This document shows positions 1 to 18,328 of a stretch of 64,000 nt of DNA, in pieces. Location of the stretch: assembly GCF_054482595.1 (NCBI RefSeq), contig NZ_CM137008.1. One strand, 5' to 3'. A program made the position numbers and the translations under genes. How positions within the stretch are numbered: the first letter of the stretch is position 1; every line of letters begins with the position of its first letter. The notes under the pieces were generated by a model that had not been told where the DNA came from, searched no databases, and was given only the letters and a program-made list of their open reading frames with translations.

Positions 1-2727
<2,727 letters not shown>

Positions 2728-3040
2728 GCTTACCTTCCCTGAACGAGCTAACATAAATGCGCCCTTTCTAGCACAGCGAAAAAATGTAAATCCTGATAGC
2801 AATATGATTGAAAATTAATAACTTTTCGTTAGGCAGTTTTGGGTGTGAGTTGCAAGAGGGGAGACTACTGAATAACTCAAGTTTTATAATCGAGGGGAAA
2901 ATGGTGATGGCGTTCATAGCAAAACGCCCTCAACCATAAAGGTCGAGGGCGCTTAAGATGTTAAAAATCCGCTATCCGTTAAAAAACAATGTTCAACTAA
3001 GGTCAGTAACATTGCGCTAAAAAAGCGAATTTTTAGAATT

Positions 3041-3116
3041 TGGCTCCTCTGACTGGACTCGAACCAGTGACATACGGATTAACAGTCCGCCGTTCTACCG
3101 ACTGAACTACAGAGGA
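3041..3116 (-). tRNA. asnT: tRNA-Asn (GUU)
   Basis: Reverse complement reads TCCTCTGTAGTTCAGTCGGTAGAACGGCGGACTGTTAATCCGTATGTCACTGGTTCGAGTCCAGTCAGAGGAGCCA, a canonical cloverleaf with GTT anticodon. Confidence 0.9.
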
Positions 3117-3216
3117 ATCGTGTGAACGGGGCGCATATTACTTAGCGGTACCTTGTCTGTCAACACTAAATTTCATAAGTCATTTCAATTGGTTAATTAA
3201 TCTGCAAAGTTGTTAA

Positions 3217-4014
3217 TTAATGAACATTCGTCGCCGAAAACGAGTCTGTATCATTAGTGCGATGCAGTCTCTGCAAAGGATCTTGTTGATAAAATTGGCA
3301 GAAACGTTGCCACAATGAAGGGAAACGAGGAGCAAAAAGTTCTGGGGCGCTAAAGAAATATTCAGAAAGTACGGCAAAACATTCAGCAGGATCACTGGCA
3401 GCATAAGCATCAATGCTCGCCGCATTCTCGCCAACCAATTCGATTTCTTCCTGAATGTTGTTCATTGCAGCATGAAGATCGTGTTCCCAGCCAGCAACCT
3501 CACGCAACGGAATAAAGGGAACTCCGCTGGCGCGATCGCCGTTACGGGTGTCCAGCTTATGAGCGACTTCATGAATAATCAGGTTAAAACCAGATGCATC
3601 AAAAGAATCTTGTATATCCAACCAGTTCAAAACGATAGGCCCTTGCTGCCAGCTCTGACCTGACTGAACAATACGTTGGTTATGCACCAGACCGATATCG
3701 TCTTCCCATTCATCATCGACCACAAATGGCGCAGGATAAATTAAGACTTCATGAAAACCATCCAGCCATTCCAGTCCTAACTCCAGAACGGGTAGGCAAA
3801 ATAGAAGTGCTATCCGGCAGCTTCTTAATGAATCCAGTTCAAAGCCCTGTAAAGGAACAAGCCGCTTTTGCTGTAAAAAACGTTCGGCAAGAGTGACTAA
3901 TTTGCTTTGTTCCTGTTCCGTCAGACCCGTTAAAAGGGGGATCGATAGTGCTTCCTGCCAGGGAAGGGCAGTTTGATATGCTGATTCTTGTACTTTCCAG
4001 GGCCACTTAATCAT
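3217..4014 (-). CDS. mtfA: Mlc titration factor A (zinc-dependent peptidase family)
   Basis: ORF 3217..4053 trimmed to internal start [20 protein letters not shown] (265 aa); HEVAH zinc motif present. Confidence 0.85.
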
Positions 4015-4106
4015 CGTTTTGCTCGCAAACTCGTCACTTGAACAAAATTGCACGGACAGGGACTGTTAAAATGCCAAATTTCCTGGCATCATGGCAACCA
4101 TCTGAA

Positions 4107-4196
4107 CGGAGAGATGCCGGAGCGGCTGAACGGACCGGTCTCGAAAACCGGAGTGGGGGCAACTCCACCGGGGGTTCAAATCCCCCTCTCTCCGCC
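4107..4196 (+). tRNA. serU: tRNA-Ser (CGA), 90 nt with long variable arm; 3' part is the phage attachment core
   Basis: GGAGAGATGCCGGAGCGGCTGAACGGACCGGTCTCGAAAACCGG...GGTTCAAATCCCCCTCTCTCCGCCA; anticodon loop CTCGAAA. Confidence 0.9.
4135..4196. repeat. attL core: 62-bp direct repeat (2 mismatches) shared with attR
   Basis: cggtctcgaaaaccggagt[g/a]ggggcaactc[c/t]accgggggttcaaatccccctctctccgcca found at 4135-4196 and 43190-43251. Confidence 0.85.
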
Positions 4197-4243
4197 AAAA
4201 TTCAATCACTTACACATCATTAAGTCAGTGACAAAAATCACAC

Positions 4244-4278
4244 TTGGAATTACTTGGAATATTTTCTTGGAATATTTT
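4244..4278. promoter_or_regulatory. Three direct copies of TTGGAAT(ATTTTC): candidate integrase arm-type binding sites (P' arm)
   Basis: Copies at 4244, 4254, 4267; same motif at 43079-43089 and inverted at 43141-43150 near attR; overlaps int 3' end. Confidence 0.4.
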
Positions 4279-5275
4279 CAGGTAACGGGACATCAAGTGT
4301 TGGTGAAACTTTAACCTTCCTGTCATAGATTAGCACTTGCCCTTCGGTTTTGTGACCAGAGAAAAGTTGCTTATCCCGGCTGCTTCCTTCATAGTCTGAA
4401 ATTCCTTTCGCCTTCAGATCATGAAAGGTGAAGTCGGTTAAAATACCTGAAATTTTTCCAGCACGATTTCTTGCATCTACCCACATTTCGTTAAAGCCTT
4501 TGTACATATATCGGTTGCCGTATTGATTGCTGATCACATAGGCAGATTTTGGTAACTGTTTTGCTTTTTCGATCGCTGCCTGTAATCGTGGACTCCATGC
4601 TTTTATCTGTTTTTTTCCGGTTTTCCCTTGCTGGATGAATATCCCGTCGTTTCCAATCTGTTCCCATTTCAGCGATAACACATCGGAAACCCTCGCTGCA
4701 CACAGATAGGCAATTTCCATTGCGATAAAAACAGGAAGAGGTGCAACGCTTAATACTGCCTGGTATTCTTTGTCGGTTACATATCGTTCGCGGTTTTTGG
4801 CCTTGAATTTACTTACACCTGCACATGGGTTAGCCTTCACGTACCCTCGCTCATACCCCCAACTGTAAACACGGGACATACTGCTTTTTTCATGGTTGGC
4901 TTGCGTTTTACTCTGCTCCCCTCTTTTGTCCATGTATCGACGGATGTGTTCTGGTTTTATGGAATCCGCTGGTACCTTACCGAATACGGCAAGCAACTTT
5001 TTTTGATGTTGCAGATAATCTTTTTGTGTTCTTGGACTAAGGTCACTGTAATAGGCGCTGGCGAGGAATTTTTCCCACAAGCGACCGAATGTCATTGCAC
5101 GATCGCGATTATTTACAGTTTCCTCATACTTTTTCCATAAAGCAGCTAAACCATCCTTGATGGCGGTTAGTGTGACAGATTCTCTGGATGTTGGTTTCCA
5201 TACATAACTATATTTATTTGGGTATACATTTGGAGGTAATTTTTCGTGTTCAGGATTTTTCCTTCGTCTTCCCAT
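4250..5275 (-). CDS. int: Tyrosine recombinase / phage integrase
   Basis: 341-aa ORF adjacent to attL; C-terminal catalytic region with R...HxLR...Y-type residues (FTFHDLKAKG...LFSGHKTEGQVLIYDRK). Confidence 0.85.
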   Translation of the reverse strand: MGRRRKNPEHEKLPPNVYPNKYSYVWKPTSRESVTLTAIKDGLAALWKKYEETVNNRDRAMTFGRLWEKFLASAYYSDLSPRTQKDYLQHQKKLLAVFGKVPADSIKPEHIRRYMDKRGEQSKTQANHEKSSMSRVYSWGYERGYVKANPCAGVSKFKAKNRERYVTDKEYQAVLSVAPLPVFIAMEIAYLCAARVSDVLSLKWEQIGNDGIFIQQGKTGKKQIKAWSPRLQAAIEKAKQLPKSAYVISNQYGNRYMYKGFNEMWVDARNRAGKISGILTDFTFHDLKAKGISDYEGSSRDKQLFSGHKTEGQVLIYDRKVKVSPTLDVPLPENIPRKYSK

Positions 5276-5478
5276 CAGATCGCACCAAAATTCGGCTCTA
5301 CCTCGCGTGGTGGTAAAGTTTTATTGCAGGTAAATAGATCCCGGCTGACAATCGGTTTGCCACTACGATTGGTATAGAACGGAAGCCCGTTTTCCATTAA
5401 CCATTTTCGCTGGTGGCTTGCATATTTGCAGCCCGTTAATATTTGCAATTCATCTTCGGTTAAAAATAAGCTGCTCAT
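5275..5478 (-). CDS. xis: Excisionase-like small DNA-binding protein
   Basis: 67-aa ORF directly upstream of int with 1-nt stop/start overlap. Confidence 0.6.
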   Translation of the reverse strand: MSSLFLTEDELQILTGCKYASHQRKWLMENGLPFYTNRSGKPIVSRDLFTCNKTLPPREVEPNFGAI

Positions 5479-10387: not shown

Positions 10388-10423
10388 ACCTGTGGGTATT
10401 GACTTTTGTTTACCTGTGGGTAT
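10388..10423. promoter_or_regulatory. Candidate OR operators: two direct copies of ACCTGTGGGTAT in the repressor/cro divergent region
   Basis: Copies at 10388-10399 and 10412-10423. Confidence 0.5.
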
Positions 10424-10451
10424 TCTTTACTGTGTTTACTAAGGAGTAGCT

Positions 10452-11142: not shown

Positions 11143-11213
11143 CTGACAATAGCCATATCGAATCGCTTCCGGCAACTCGTGAGTAAAAAGATTCGGTATC
11201 AGAAGAGGTGAGT

Positions 11214-12308
11214 ATGGCTAACGCCTGGCTCAGATTATGGCATGACATGCCAAATGACCCTAAGTGGCGAACAATTGCCAGGGTGTCAGGGCAGCCAATT
11301 GCAACAGTGATGGCAGTGTATATCCACCTCCTGGTGAGCGCGTCACGAAATGTCACGCGAGGTCACATTGATGTCACGACAGAAGATTTGGCAAGTGCGC
11401 TCGACGTGACAGAAGAGGTAATTGATTCAATTTTGCAGACGATGCAGGGGCGGGTACTTGATGGTGATTTAATCACTGGATGGGAAAAACGCCAGGTGCT
11501 TAAAGAGGACAACGGCAATATTTCGCAAACCGCAAAATCTCCTGCAGAGCGCAAGAGGGCGCAGCGAGAGAGGGAAAGAAAGCGGGAACAAAATGGCGAT
11601 TGTCACGGCGCGTCACGAAATGTCACGCACATGTCACGACGAGTCACGACAGATAAAGATACAGATAAAGATACAGATCAAGAAGATCAAAACACTATGG
11701 TCCATGGCGTAAAAAACGCCACGAACCAGGCAGGGGATGTTCAGACCGTCAATCTTGGTCAGCCAGCAGGCACGACACCGGAAGCCGATTCAGCGTATGC
11801 GCTGAAAGCCGATTCGGGCGCTGTGCAGCAGGTGATGACCGCAAGGCTGGAGCAATCACACCAACTGCAGCAGCCCGAAGCCGATTCCGCCATTCAGCGG
11901 GAAGCCGATTCCGCCATTCAGCGGGAAGCCGATCGGGTAGTCCCGGAAAACACCGGGCAGTCTGTGGGACGAGTGGATTATCCGGATGTGTTCGAACAGG
12001 TCTGGCGGGAGTACCCGTTGCGTGCCGGAGCAAACCCGAAGAAATCCGCTTTCAGTGCCTGGAAGGCCAGATTACGCGAGGGGGTGCCACCAGAGGCCAT
12101 GCTGGATGGCGTGAGGCGTTACGCAAGATACTTGGCGGCTACCGGGAAAACGGGAACGGAATTTGTTCAGCGAGCGACGACGTTTTTTGGACCGGACCGG
12201 AATTTTGAGAACCCCTGGTTGCTCCCGGTAAGCGGCACGAACAACCAGCGTTGTGTGAATCATATTTCTGAACCGGATAACGAAATTCCGCCGGGCTTCA
12301 GGGGGTAA
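11214..12308 (+). CDS. Putative replication initiation protein (O-like) with internal repeats
   Basis: ATG 11214 after SD agaagagg; contains two GTCACG iteron-like clusters and coding tandem repeats (DKDTDKDTD, EADSAIQR x2). Confidence 0.55.
   Translation: MANAWLRLWHDMPNDPKWRTIARVSGQPIATVMAVYIHLLVSASRNVTRGHIDVTTEDLASALDVTEEVIDSILQTMQGRVLDGDLITGWEKRQVLKEDNGNISQTAKSPAERKRAQRERERKREQNGDCHGASRNVTHMSRRVTTDKDTDKDTDQEDQNTMVHGVKNATNQAGDVQTVNLGQPAGTTPEADSAYALKADSGAVQQVMTARLEQSHQLQQPEADSAIQREADSAIQREADRVVPENTGQSVGRVDYPDVFEQVWREYPLRAGANPKKSAFSAWKARLREGVPPEAMLDGVRRYARYLAATGKTGTEFVQRATTFFGPDRNFENPWLLPVSGTNNQRCVNHISEPDNEIPPGFRG
11342..11380. repeat. Iteron-like cluster 1: four GTCAC(G/A) at ~10-11 bp spacing
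   Basis: GTCAC at 11342, 11352, 11362, 11373 inside the replication gene. Confidence 0.5.
11602..11650. repeat. Iteron-like cluster 2: five GTCACG at ~10-11 bp spacing
   Basis: GTCACG at 11602, 11612, 11622, 11633, 11643; cgtcacgaaatgtcacgc shared with cluster 1. Confidence 0.5.
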
Positions 12309-12348
12309 GTGTTAATTTCTGGTCATGAGGTAATTTTCAGGAGGGCTT

Positions 12349-12771
12349 GTGGCAAAAGTTTTTACACAAGAAGAGCGGGAAAAAATTAAAGGACAGGTTG
12401 TTGAACTCGTACGCCAGAGTGGGCGTGAGACGTTACGGCAACTGGAAGTCAAGACAGGTGCGACAAGATATCTGATGAGCGTTCTCGCAAGAGAGCTGGT
12501 TGCCAGCGGCGATGTATACAACTCTGGTTACGGGTTATTCCCGTCTGAACAGGCGCGTAAGGACTGGCAAAATGCCCGTAAAAAGCTCTCAAGGGCAAAG
12601 CTGAAGAAACCATCTGCGGTTGATCCGGACCTTATCTGGTCATTACCAGACGGAGAAATACGCCGCTACGACAGGCGCCTGAATATAATCTGTCGCGAGT
12701 GCCGGAAGAGCGAAGCTATGCAGCGTGTACTGGCTTTCTATCAGGGTAATTTTCAGGAGGCGGTACTGTAA
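12349..12771 (+). CDS. Hypothetical protein (possible winged-helix)
   Basis: 140 aa, GTG start with SD caggaggg; no confident family. Confidence 0.45.
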   Translation: MAKVFTQEEREKIKGQVVELVRQSGRETLRQLEVKTGATRYLMSVLARELVASGDVYNSGYGLFPSEQARKDWQNARKKLSRAKLKKPSAVDPDLIWSLPDGEIRRYDRRLNIICRECRKSEAMQRVLAFYQGNFQEAVL

Positions 12772-12828
12772 GTGAAATTAGCTATCAGGCTTCAATTGCC
12801 GCTGGCATTCGCATCAAAGGAGAGGAGC

Positions 12829-13185
12829 ATGGAAATAAAACCAGAAGATGAGTTAAGTAATATTGTTTTATTTCCGGTAAAAGAGGATGACCCACGTAAT
12901 CAGGTTAATTTTCTTTATGAGCCATCGGAAAGACCATACTGCCATCACGCTTCTGTCCGGGTTGACGAAAAAGAGCGTCAGGTCCGCTGTAAAATCTGCG
13001 GTGCAGTTGTGGAGCCATTTGACTGGATGCTCTCTGTGGCGAAAAGAGAAACCAGACTGGCAGATGATGTAAAACTATTGCGCCAGGAGGAACAGGAAAG
13101 GCGAAAAAATATAGAAAAGCTAATTCAGATTGAGCGTAATGCGAAAGCACGGATACGCAGGGTGACAAAATCCAGAACTGAATAA
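12829..13185 (+). CDS. Hypothetical protein with Cys/His cluster and coiled-coil-like C-terminus
   Basis: ATG 12829 after ggagaggag; CHHASVRVDEKERQVRCKICG motif. Confidence 0.45.
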   Translation: MEIKPEDELSNIVLFPVKEDDPRNQVNFLYEPSERPYCHHASVRVDEKERQVRCKICGAVVEPFDWMLSVAKRETRLADDVKLLRQEEQERRKNIEKLIQIERNAKARIRRVTKSRTE

Positions 13186-13278
13186 TTAAATTTAGCACTG
13201 TTAAAAATTTAATCCTTAACCGGAGGGATTTCTGCACCCTCAGAACAGCAGGAGGCCACCCGAAAGGGTGGTAGTGAA

Positions 13279-13461
13279 ATGCGAAAGTTCAAAATAATTA
13301 TTGAAACGGGAATAGCTGGTGGAGATTTTGAGGATGTATTCGAAGTGGACGATGACGCAACACCTGATGAAATTCATGACGAAGCAAAAGAAATTTTCTT
13401 TAACTACTGCAATTACTCATATCACGAAATAAAAGACGAAGAGGAAGAACAAAATGGCTGA
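13279..13461 (+). CDS. Small highly acidic protein
   Basis: 60 aa, about 19 Asp/Glu; stop overlaps next start. Confidence 0.4.
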   Translation: MRKFKIIIETGIAGGDFEDVFEVDDDATPDEIHDEAKEIFFNYCNYSYHEIKDEEEEQNG

Positions 13462-13630
13462 TTTTGGTTCAACTAAATACAACGTCAGTTTTGAAGAATG
13501 GCATGAACTGTTAATGGACTATGCAGAGTTACGTGGTGGAAGTGCTGCTGATGCTGAAGCCTGGCGTGATGACTACGAAGCAGGAAAAACTCCGGTCGAA
13601 GCATATTGTGATGAGTGGGGCGATGAATGA
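13454..13630 (+). CDS. Small acidic protein (58 aa)
   Basis: ORF found by hand, below the 60-aa cutoff of the ORF track; MADFGSTKYNVSFEEWHELLMDYAELRGGSAADAEAWRDDYEAGKTPVEAYCDEWGDE; ATGA overlap with next gene. Confidence 0.35.
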   Translation: MADFGSTKYNVSFEEWHELLMDYAELRGGSAADAEAWRDDYEAGKTPVEAYCDEWGDE

Positions 13631-14142
13631 GCGAGATTAATTATCAGGAAGGGCATGAAACGGCAGGGCAGGCAAAACCAGTTGCATGGCGATATCGCTA
13701 CGTGAAAAAAGGCGTTACGGACTTTCAGGAGAAGATGTGGGTTGGTGACTGGAAATATGTACCGACAAAAGAGGGGTGCAACGACAGGCCGGGCTATGAG
13801 ATTCAGGCCTTATTCACTACCCCGCCAGTCCCTGTGATATCAGAAGGACTGGTTAAAGCCGTGCGCTTTTATGAACAGGTAAAGCGTGAGAATCCACCAG
13901 TCGAAACAGGAGCATGGAAAGATGCTGTTGATTGGGTACTCAAAGAGGCCTGCTGTGCTGTCATTCTGGGTAAAGCCGACAATCCACTAGCATCCAGTAA
14001 TCAGGTTGGCGAATTAACAATGTGGGTTAAACGACTGGTCAGTCAACTGAAAAAAGCTAATCCAGACTGCAAATTACCGGAGATGGCGATGGATTACCTG
14101 AAACGAAATGGACTGATAAGCGTGGAGGATGTTTTACGATGA
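13627..14142 (+). CDS. Hypothetical protein
   Basis: 171 aa; translationally coupled to neighbours. Confidence 0.5.
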   Translation: MSEINYQEGHETAGQAKPVAWRYRYVKKGVTDFQEKMWVGDWKYVPTKEGCNDRPGYEIQALFTTPPVPVISEGLVKAVRFYEQVKRENPPVETGAWKDAVDWVLKEACCAVILGKADNPLASSNQVGELTMWVKRLVSQLKKANPDCKLPEMAMDYLKRNGLISVEDVLR

Positions 14143-14222
14143 CCTGGCCTGAGGCATTTACAACGGCAGGAATCGCAATGGCTGTGGCGCTGGTGGTGTA
14201 TTCGATTTGCCGCTGGGGATAA
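14139..14222 (+). CDS. Possible 27-aa hydrophobic peptide
   Basis: MTWPEAFTTAGIAMAVALVVYSICRWG; ATGA overlap with upstream gene; single predicted TM segment. Confidence 0.25.
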   Translation: MTWPEAFTTAGIAMAVALVVYSICRWG

Positions 14223-14376
14223 AAACGGTTTGCGGGAAAAGGAGAGTTAAGTAGAATTGCAGCGGGTGCTTGAGGCTATCTGTCTCAGGCATGAACACCA
14301 AAAGGCAGATAGAGAAAAGCCCCAGTTAACATTACGCGTCCTGCAAGACGCTTAACATTAATCTGAGGCTCAATCT

Positions 14377-14589
14377 ATGAACGGCAAATCTAGGTTAGCC
14401 TCTTACGTGCCGAAAGGCAAGGAGAAGCAGGCTATGAAGCAGCAAAAGGCGATGTTAATCGCCCTGATCGTCATCTGTTTAACCGTCATTGTGACGGCAC
14501 TGGTAACGAGGAAAGACCTCTGCGAGGTACGAATCCGAACCGGCCAGACGGAGGTCGCTGTCTTCACAGCTTACGAACCTGAGGAGTAA
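14377..14589 (+). CDS. mok: Mok-like leader ORF, in-frame N-terminal extension of hok
   Basis: 70-aa ORF MNGKSRLASYVPKGKEKQA... continuing into the Hok reading frame. Confidence 0.45.
   Translation: MNGKSRLASYVPKGKEKQAMKQQKAMLIALIVICLTVIVTALVTRKDLCEVRIRTGQTEVAVFTAYEPEE
14434..14589 (+). CDS. hok: Hok/Gef-family type I toxin
   Basis: 51 aa MKQQKAMLIALIVICLTVIVTALVTRKDLCEVRIRTGQTEVAVFTAYEPEE; complementary mRNA end elements at 14263-14276 and 14639-14653. Confidence 0.8.
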   Translation: MKQQKAMLIALIVICLTVIVTALVTRKDLCEVRIRTGQTEVAVFTAYEPEE

Positions 14590-14732
14590 GAGACCTGGCG
14601 GGGGAGAAATCCCTCGCCACCTCTGATGTGTCAGGCATCCTCAACGCACCCGCACTTAACCCGCTTCGGCGTTTTTTCCGTTGATTAACTCTAGTTATTA
14701 GAGAACCGAACTTTTATTGATGGGGCAGGGAG

Positions 14733-15125
14733 ATGAAGAAACTTGTTTTAGTCGCAGGTGTAATGATTGCAACAGTAATGTTGGGAGGGTGTGCAGCAAA
14801 GGTCGATCCAGCGTTGAAAGCAGAAGCAATGAAGCCACTAACATGTAATGATGAAAAGCAATGTGACTTTTATTGGAAACGAGCGCAATTCTGGTTGGCT
14901 AATAATTCCTCATGGAAAATTCAAACGGCGACAGACACGCTAATTTCCACTTATAATCCCTCTCCAAATAGTCCATTCCTCGCTTATCAGGTGAGTAAAA
15001 TGCCAAATGAAGATGGATCCTCAAGAATTTTCATCAAGCCTTTTTGCGATAATATGTTTGGCTGTCAACCAAACCCCTATCAGGCAGTTGTTTCCTTTAA
15101 AAACTTCGTTAAAACAGGGCAGTAG
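14733..15125 (+). CDS. Lipoprotein of unknown function
   Basis: 130 aa; signal peptide with lipobox LGGC; four further Cys; followed by terminator-like hairpin. Confidence 0.55.
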   Translation: MKKLVLVAGVMIATVMLGGCAAKVDPALKAEAMKPLTCNDEKQCDFYWKRAQFWLANNSSWKIQTATDTLISTYNPSPNSPFLAYQVSKMPNEDGSSRIFIKPFCDNMFGCQPNPYQAVVSFKNFVKTGQ

Positions 15126-15324
15126 TGTATAGCTTGGACGATAAATTATTAGTGAAAACGCCGTAAACCCTCACCCAATGTGGACTAAGTCTATCAAACA
15201 TGACTGTGATGATTAGTCCGTAGTTGTTGCCTATGAAATCTGGATTGAGTCAGGGTTTAATCCAATAATTATTCTATCGTTCCTTTACAAGTCCGGTATA
15301 TTACTTTCAGTTTGTTTTAGCATA

Positions 15325-18018: not shown

Positions 18019-18094
18019 GGCCCTTTAGCTCAGTGGTGAGAGCGAGCGACTCATAATCGCCAGGTCGCTGGTTCAAATCCAGCAAGGGCCACCA
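18019..18094 (+). tRNA. tRNA with CAU anticodon (Ile2/Met-like)
   Basis: GGCCCTTTAGCTCAGTGGTGAGAGCGAGCGACTCATAATCGCCAGGTCGCTGGTTCAAATCCAGCAAGGGCCACCA. Confidence 0.8.
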
Positions 18095-18095
18095 A

Positions 18096-18172
18096 CCGCC
18101 ACTAGCTCATCAGGAAAGAGCGTCAACCCTTTAAGTTGAGTGTGCGAGGTTCGAGTCCCCGGTGGCGGTCCA
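18096..18172 (+). tRNA. tRNA, anticodon read as UUU (Lys) but loop atypical; identity provisional
   Basis: Acceptor CCGCCAC/GTGGCGG, D and T arms, encoded CCA; anticodon loop CCTTTAA with C at position 33. Confidence 0.55.
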
Positions 18173-18174
18173 GT

Positions 18175-18250
<76 letters not shown>

Positions 18251-18253
18251 TAT

Positions 18254-18328
<75 letters not shown>

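Follow-up and report, generated by a model that had tools for sequence, protein, structure and literature searches.

A mosaic string of six early accessory genes, including two acidic small-protein families and a 27-residue membrane mini-gene, in a lambdoid prophage of Escherichia coli

The stretch analysed here (the window) comprises 64,000 nucleotides of an Escherichia coli chromosome (RefSeq assembly GCF_054482595.1, contig NZ_CM137008.1), and the subject of this study is a block of six small open reading frames, ORF1 to ORF6, at positions 12349-14222, in the early region of a Rac/lambda-like prophage. All six were found on the + strand at the coordinates given in the original prediction, and the placement of the block between a replication gene and a hok locus was likewise confirmed: it is flanked on the left by a phage replication-initiator gene (11208-12308, phrog_3729) and on the right by sok (14264-14439, Rfam match of 112 bits) with an adjacent match to the Hok family. 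The block is an ordinary and very common string of lambdoid accessory genes, i.e. a piece of well-sampled phage dark matter, and its earlier description as early-region accessory cargo of unknown function was borne out.

The block contains two overlapping genes for very acidic small proteins, ORF3 (13279..13461, +; 60 amino acids (aa), net charge -14) and ORF4 (13454..13630, +; 58 aa, net charge -12). The content of Asp and Glu is 31.7% in ORF3 and 27.6% in ORF4, in agreement with the approximately 30% read from the sequence previously, and the isoelectric point (pI) is ~4.05 for both. Among the 37 annotated coding sequences in the 28 kb around them (median 13%), they are the top two in Asp+Glu content, and they also exceed in this respect all 15 lambda early small proteins compared. 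ORF3 belongs to the Pfam family DUF7167 (PF23768; E 3.1e-14, residues 2-53 on model positions 1-60), which is also its name in RefSeq; ORF4 has no match in Pfam and is placed in phrog_519 (E 4.5e-23). Acidity is characteristic of both families. The net charge has a median of -13 (range -9 to -18; n=48, alignment A4) in DUF7167 and of -10 (range -4 to -15; n=33, alignment A1) in the ORF4 family, and the pI is never above 5.3 in any member of either. Since most of the acidic positions are kept acidic in at least 70% of members in both families, the charge is under selection. Typical length is ~57 aa in DUF7167 and 48-99 aa (median 58) in the ORF4 family, for which the representative search gave 65 clusters. 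In DUF7167, I8, E9, T10, E22, I32, A36 and F40 are invariant or nearly so, and the conserved positions of the ORF4 family form an aromatic/hydrophobic core (F13, W16, W37, Y41, G44 and P47). Long repeat proteins (P0172, P0185 and others) were rejected as relatives of ORF4, as their matches are composition-driven and fall on repeat units. AlphaFold2 models predict a beta-hairpin plus helix with an acidic tail for ORF3 and a three-helix bundle for ORF4, with predicted local distance difference test (pLDDT) values of 88.7 and 87.7, correspondingly.

These features bring to mind anti-restriction DNA mimics of the Ocr/ArdA type, and under such an explanation ORF3 and/or ORF4 would block type I restriction-modification or BREX-like enzymes. 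The extreme and family-wide acidity, the small size and the early-operon position are in line with it, as is the presence of the families in phages of several host genera, virulent as well as temperate, which would be expected of a broadly useful counter-defence. Searches of the PDB gave no sequence, profile or fold match for either protein, DNA mimics included, and neither is a member, by sequence or fold, of the described mimic families (Ocr, ArdA, Arn, gp5.9, p56, Ugi and Gam). The lack of a match to the Ocr and ArdA Pfam families and to the solved mimics counts against mimicry of this type, although known mimics have no common fold and a missing fold match is therefore compatible with it. 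Moreover, the secondary structure of the monomer models points to compact globular domains of ~55 aa, not obviously to elongated DNA-like rods, the strongest conservation in ORF4 lies in the aromatic core and draws no acidic stripe, and the genome of an induced (not injected) prophage is already host-modified. Taken together, we consider Ocr/ArdA-type mimicry unlikely. Homology of the acidic proteins to ordinary nin-region proteins, which the original prediction had named as the finding that would speak against an undescribed function, was not detected in comparisons with lambda. The idea of mimicry is thereby neither strengthened nor refuted, and its basis is still composition and position.

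Translation of ORF3 may have a structured start. Positions 13250-13272 (+) hold AGGAGG followed, according to RNA folding, by a 7-bp hairpin with a GAAA loop, 6 nt ahead of the ORF3 ATG, and the element may represent a hairpin-bridged ribosome-binding site, comparable with the hairpin-bridged Shine-Dalgarno sequences of T4 genes 38 and 25. Shiga toxin (Stx) phage ArgO145 and phage vB_EcoS-689R5 (hereafter 689R5) retain both AGGAGG and the hairpin with one compensatory change from an A-U to a G-C pair; just two sequence types are represented, and the gene upstream of the ArgO145 hairpin differs from that found here. An internal terminator between ORF2 and ORF3 was considered for the same hairpin and dismissed, because a T-run is missing and the z-score, at -1.8, is weak.

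The acidic pair is neither rare nor unplaced: at a threshold of at least 90% identity, ORF3 and ORF4 occur together in 1748 of the 5426 complete E. coli genomes (32%), and within this species the pair is a fixed unit. The block as a whole is no such unit and consists of separately mobile genes that occur in differing positions and combinations. In ArgO145 and other Stx2a phages, homologues of ORF2, ORF3, ORF4 and ORF6 with 96-98% protein identity reside in the leftward (pL) arm, among Ead/Ea22-like genes and not after the replication gene. The Enterobacter homologue of ORF4 is found in both positions in different prophages, always directly after an Ead_Ea22 protein. DUF7167 homologues were identified in prophages of Klebsiella, Serratia, Yersinia and Citrobacter and in phages of Enterococcus and Pseudomonas; the gene precedes xis-int in Serratia and other prophages and lies in the nin region of a Klebsiella phage. 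Furthermore, the two families part company outside E. coli. Homologues of ORF4 with 55-60% identity are present in virulent Ackermannviridae (CBA120 orf183, Ag3, PhiSH19 and Klebsiella phage Menlow) with no DUF7167 gene nearby, and DUF7167 occurs without ORF4 in Guernseyvirinae-type Klebsiella phages, Enterococcus Herelleviridae and a Pseudomonas phage.

It should be added that in the Klebsiella phages 37P2 and VLCpiS11a (loci L006 and L007, 2501-4025) a 454-aa gene, annotated as 'exonuclease' in VLCpiS11a and as 'hypothetical protein' in 37P2, has its start overlapped by the DUF7167 gene; a gene for a Gp2.5-like annealing protein is next in VLCpiS11a, and the DUF7167 gene itself is mislabelled 'PD-(D/E)XK phosphodiesterase' in 37P2. 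This overlap could be taken to mean that ORF3 is a recombination or replication helper, e.g. an inhibitor of a host nuclease acting on RecBCD like lambda Gam or T7 gp5.9, which would protect linear or rolling-circle phage DNA. Other prophage copies of the gene have ERF, SSB and Dam genes as neighbours within the recombination arm, and in the RefSeq annotation of the prophage studied here neither recT nor gam stands beside the 813-aa exonuclease and no gam-like gene is annotated at all. The T7 5.9-6 and lambda gam-bet-exo gene orders are echoed by the Klebsiella arrangement, and gp5.9 is itself a very acidic protein of ~52 aa. Against this stands that adjacency to an exonuclease gene was seen in one Klebsiella phage clade only; the Enterococcus neighbour called 'exonuclease' reads as an ASCH/DUF3850-type protein, DUF3850 being annotated there in one record, and a general linkage of ORF3 to exonucleases was rejected on these two grounds. 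Stx phages with DUF7167 would presumably have gam as well, and a PDB match of ORF3 to Gam or gp5.9 is absent. We thus regard the recombination-helper explanation as very unlikely.

ORF5 (13627..14142, +) encodes 171 aa, is placed in phrog_660 (E 8e-73) and is built of three parts: an Ea22-type leader beginning with MSEINYQ, a middle module at residues ~27-115 and a C-terminal module at residues ~119-171. Lambda Ea22 aligns with residues 1-23 only (E 0.007) and the Ea22-like protein of ArgO145 with residues 1-16 only. In Pfam nothing matched ORF5 even at E<=10, Ead_Ea22 (PF13935) included, and ORF5 was rejected as an Ea22 homologue beyond the leader, as it fails the Ead_Ea22 model and neither the central coiled coil nor the C-terminal domain aligns. 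The middle module is a stand-alone protein in phages Av-05, 18-1-2 and P88, and the C-terminal module recurs at the ends of N15 gp45, ST64B Sb32 and ArgO145 gp10. In 689R5 (locus L001, 6681-6791), four extra genes, encoding Ea22, a hypothetical protein, EaA and one more, are located between the middle and C-terminal modules. Because these four genes separate the two modules, the comparison shows ORF5 of the window as the putative product of a deletion or recombination that joined two genes.

The Ea22 leader on ORF5, together with the fact that Stx phages hold the same genes in the exo-xis/ea region beside Ea22-like genes, would suit a further explanation, according to which the genes are developmental modulators that tune the lysis-lysogeny decision, induction and host physiology, as do the exo-xis genes of lambda and Stx phages. 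The latter are expressed early and influence lysogenisation and induction (PMC3824215, PMC7093339, PMC10834534). On the other hand, ORF2, ORF3 and ORF4 are unrelated to the products of lambda orf60a, orf61, orf63, ea8.5 and ea22: BLASTP and the profiles A1, A4 and A5 gave E>0.09 throughout for orf60a (DUF1317), orf61, orf63 (DUF1382) and ea8.5, and no sequence relation of the three proteins to ea22 was found. The failure of ORF5 in the Ead_Ea22 model speaks against this explanation as well, as does the occurrence of ORF3, ORF4, ORF6 and the middle module of ORF5 in non-lysogenising phages, i.e. Ackermannviridae, the Vequintavirinae phage Av-05 and Enterococcus Herelleviridae. On balance, a developmental role of this kind seems unlikely, and since homologues are present in obligately virulent phages, a role confined to the lysis-lysogeny decision is argued against in particular.

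The last gene of the block, ORF6 (14139..14222, +), encodes a single-pass hydrophobic peptide of 27 aa, in which a transmembrane stretch is enclosed by MTWPEA and CRWG; it was left unannotated by PGAP. The earlier proposal of a 27-aa hydrophobic peptide proved right, as the peptide is real and conserved across phage contexts. Tblastn located it in 94 phage records, and in seven phage contexts its length is exactly 27 aa, with the consensus M[TS]WP[ED]A, a hydrophobic helix and Y[SA][IV]CRW[GR]. Ahead of its start codon lies GGAGG or AGGAGG, and the start codon forms an ATGA overlap with the stop of unrelated preceding genes. Substitutions are mainly conservative or synonymous, with 13/10/20 variable sites at the three codon positions, and the gene forms an island of 71-93% nucleotide identity between flanks of ~25%; both 90-nt flanks are at random similarity in Av-05, WGPS2 and PhiR12_1. 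Judged by this conservation pattern of the sequence, ORF6 is a real coding unit. Copies examined at L016 (2762-2842), L017 (2001-2084), L018 (2501-2584) and L020 (2001-2084) are unannotated, and in 689R5 a frameshift turns the copy into an annotated ORF of 36 aa. Across the complete E. coli genomes the element occupies 2911 places in 1513 of 5426 (28%), up to 7 per genome, often preceded by DUF551 genes, and it is also present in the virulent Av-05. No family was found for ORF6 in PHROG, NCBIfam or PADLOC, and a similarity to KdpF is sub-threshold (E 0.034, 14 bits against a cut-off of 26.85). The peptide has no match to the Hok family profile, and the sok match at 14264 begins 42 nt beyond its stop codon. 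ORF6 does not belong to the hok module, since in five other contexts it stands without hok, either ahead of xis-int or within the genome of a virulent phage. The 18-aa ORF gp45.1 of N15, which shares the ATGA position past the same C-terminal module, was rejected as a counterpart, being unrelated and non-hydrophobic. With regard to the downstream region, a likely hok promoter (TTGCGG, 16 nt, TAGAAT; 14230-14257) begins 8 nt past the ORF6 stop codon and is followed by the sok match, and in 933W the gene order is the same, with an ORF6-like gene ahead of sokW/hokW.

ORF2 (12829..13185, +; 118 aa) was singled out earlier for a Cys/His cluster, and this holds: C38, H40, C54 and C57 are invariant in homologues merely 25-32% identical. 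These homologues are p77 of 933W and proteins of Enterobacter, Hafnia and Providencia phages, and in six sequences (with 933W p77, Tyrion, Meifeng and PSTCR8lys as homologues) the four ligands and a downstream NAKARxR motif are invariant. The protein shows a weak match to Zn_Ribbon_TF (E 2.6e-4), and relatives among solved structures in the PDB were not found. Its Cys3His pattern, C38-x-H40...C54-x-x-C57, is probably a zinc-ribbon-like knuckle, which would be followed by a conserved, coiled-coil-like helix.

ORF1 (12349..12771, +) encodes a basic protein of 140 aa (pI 9.8) and starts 41 nt past the stop codon of the replication gene, as lambda ren likewise lies directly after P. It matches DUF977 (PF06163) in Pfam with E 4.5e-29 (residues 1-136 on model positions 1-134) and, over its full length, phrog_142 'Ren-like exclusion protein' with E 8e-48. 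The last 20 aa of ORF1 share 12 identical residues (60%) with the C-terminus of lambda Ren. DUF977 has been assigned a winged-helix fold by profile comparison (PMC2686095), and ORF1 probably adopts this fold. Homologues in phage records also bear the name 'LygF', which the literature search returned solely as a gene name in Salmonella genome notes.

The original prediction that none of the six genes has a confident family thus holds in part. It does not apply to ORF1 (DUF977, phrog_142) and ORF3 (DUF7167); ORF2 (phrog_1621, E 1.4e-55), ORF4 and ORF5 match PHROGs that are labelled as of unknown function, and ORF6 is indeed without a family. For all six proteins PADLOC returned zero matches and NCBIfam nothing useful, and PDB searches with single sequences and family profiles gave noise only. 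Literature searches on DUF7167, the RefSeq accessions and the ORF6 peptide strings found nothing about these proteins; papers were returned when lambdoid phages or Ea22 were combined with anti-defence or anti-restriction, and among those listed none deals with these proteins or mentions Ea22. The work of the Wegrzyn and Donaldson groups on the exo-xis region covers ea22, orf60a, orf61, orf63, orf73 and ea8.5, and not the families of this block.

With regard to the genomic setting, positions 11200-15200 are 100% identical in strain Ecol_881 and five further complete genomes. According to the RefSeq annotation of the neighbourhood, the prophage is inserted at tRNA-Ser beside mtfA and carries the RecE-type exonuclease (the 813-aa protein mentioned above), dicB and ydfC in the left arm. 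The right arm begins with a repressor, a cro-like gene, a YdaT-family (YdaT/cII-like) gene and the 366-aa replication initiator, continues with the six ORFs and hokD/sok, and proceeds to a small lipoprotein-like gene, DUF968, RusA, Q, four tRNA genes, lysis genes and HK97-type head genes. Among the three ATGA couplings predicted initially, those at 13627/13630 (ORF4/ORF5) and 14139/14142 (ORF5/ORF6) are present as 4-nt overlaps, and the junction at 13454/13461 (ORF3/ORF4) turned out to be an 8-base overlap, ATGGCTGA. Crude consensus scans detected no promoter-like or terminator-like sites on the + strand inside 12349-14222 and a pR-like site upstream of the block, at 10399-10426. A single early transcript is the simplest reading, and the six genes are probably co-transcribed early.

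Elsewhere in the window, the start (1-5280) belongs to the yersiniabactin island with ybtX, ybtS and an integrase at tRNA-Asn. The four phage tRNA genes between Q and the lysis genes (18019-18328) have a CAT anticodon (assigned to Met by ARAGORN and to Ile by RefSeq) or specify Lys, Thr and Gly. Past hok, a 130-aa ORF at 14733-15125 (phrog_16082, unknown function) has a lipoprotein-type signal, MKKLVLVAGVMIATVMLGGC, and, at its N-terminus, a weak similarity (E 0.007) to the Cor proteins of superinfection exclusion; a moron expressed in the lysogen is one possibility.

This neighbourhood, in which hok/sok and a lipoprotein with a weakly Cor-like N-terminus make up typical lysogen-benefit cargo, bears on the explanation that the block itself is prophage-borne host protection, i.e. 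superinfection exclusion or another defence, in which the Ren-like ORF1 and the membrane peptide ORF6 would do the work. The assignment of ORF1 to the PHROG of Ren-like exclusion proteins would fit, and small prophage membrane proteins often exclude other phages. Nonetheless, none of the six proteins has a PADLOC match, the genes are part of a repressed early lytic operon and have no promoter-like site of their own, and homologues occur in virulent phages. In addition, lambda Ren is established as a counter-exclusion factor, which allows escape from Rex, and is no defence. A host-protection role is therefore highly improbable.

We favour, as the probable explanation, that the six ORFs are real early genes assembled as a mosaic string in a pR-type operon, with ORF3 and ORF4 acting as binders for host takeover or counter-defence and ORF6 acting on the membrane. 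Lambdoid phages place such 'ea/nin-type' accessory genes at one of two sites: behind the replication genes, as in this prophage, or ahead of xis-int in the pL exo-xis/ea region. ORF3 and ORF4 would each be a stand-alone, stoichiometric binder that masks, through charge complementarity, a basic and probably nucleic-acid-binding surface on a protein of the host or of a rival element, early in infection or induction, and they would serve host takeover or counter-defence and not be regulators of lysogeny. The preference for host takeover or counter-defence over lysogeny control is due to the presence of both families in non-lysogenising phages and, for DUF7167, also in phages of Gram-positive hosts. 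ORF6 would insert into the inner membrane with its C-terminus inside and there influence either a membrane protein or the physiology of the envelope.

Several points weigh against this explanation. PADLOC, NCBIfam, Pfam and the PDB provided nothing functional, and no target is backed by experiments, by homologues of known function or by structural analogues. Roles as chaperone-like partners, regulators or assembly factors are likewise open to small acidic proteins. The ORF4 homologue of CBA120 is located just downstream of head genes, not obviously in an early region; co-transcription of the block is deduced solely from crude consensus scans; and the prophage, the integrase of which is annotated as frameshifted in RefSeq, looks partly decayed and may be defective. 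A more specific version, to which we give a low probability, is that DUF7167 and/or the ORF4 family are new and very widespread families of nucleic-acid-mimicking inhibitors, with a conserved DNA-binding enzyme of host defence or repair as the candidate target (from type I restriction, BREX, RecBCD/AddAB or the like) and, separately, that ORF6 is a widespread microprotein with a host membrane target.

The sequences themselves are not new: E. coli genomes with identical or near-identical copies number in the hundreds to thousands, among them those of sequence type 131 (ST131) and O157:H7, and most of the six genes already carry DUF or PHROG numbers. What is added here is a shortlist of DUF7167, the ORF4 family and the 27-aa mini-gene as reasonable material for anti-defence or host-takeover screens. 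The two acidic families combine retained charge with confidently predicted folds without a significant PDB match and span temperate and virulent phages, DUF7167 additionally spanning Gram-negative and Gram-positive hosts, and none of the RefSeq and GenBank annotations examined contains ORF6. Should a counter-defence or host-takeover factor be present among the three, it would account for a gene that roughly one in three complete E. coli genomes possesses and would bear on the behaviour of Stx phages and ST131 prophages and on host range in phage therapy.

Comparison with characterised systems places the block as follows. ORF1 resembles lambda Ren in its position directly after the replication genes, its membership in PHROG 142 and the C-terminal motif; lambda Ren, however, has 96 aa as opposed to the 140 aa of ORF1 with its DUF977 winged-helix-type N-terminal part, and similarity beyond the C-terminus was undetectable by BLAST. 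Like the acidic DNA mimics T7 Ocr, ArdA, T7 gp5.9, phi29 p56 and Ugi, ORF3 and ORF4, as known from sequence and models, are small, early, phage-borne proteins with a pI of ~4, and p56 and gp5.9 are of comparable length (~52-56 aa); unlike these, they resemble no solved structure in sequence, profile or fold. ORF6 has one hydrophobic helix and a basic C-terminal end in common with small single-pass membrane peptides such as KdpF, AcrZ and MgtS/MgtU and with type I toxins, e.g. Hok. It differs from Hok in that, although directly upstream of hok/sok here and in 933W, it belongs to neither the hok mRNA nor the sok match, and from type I toxins in that no sign of an antisense RNA was seen at ORF6. 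The string as a whole differs from the exo-xis ('ea') cassette of lambda and Stx phages (ea22, orf60a, orf61, orf63, orf73 and ea8.5), which is dispensable in lambda, in its location in the rightward operon after the replication gene, in the unrelatedness of ORF2, ORF3 and ORF4 to the characterised lambda exo-xis proteins and in ORF5, which begins with an Ea22 leader yet fails the Pfam model. Both are nonetheless mosaic sets of small, tightly packed early accessory genes beside Ead/Ea22-like genes, and the exo-xis region of ArgO145, 933W, WGPS2 and related phages holds homologues of ORF2, ORF3, ORF4 and ORF6.

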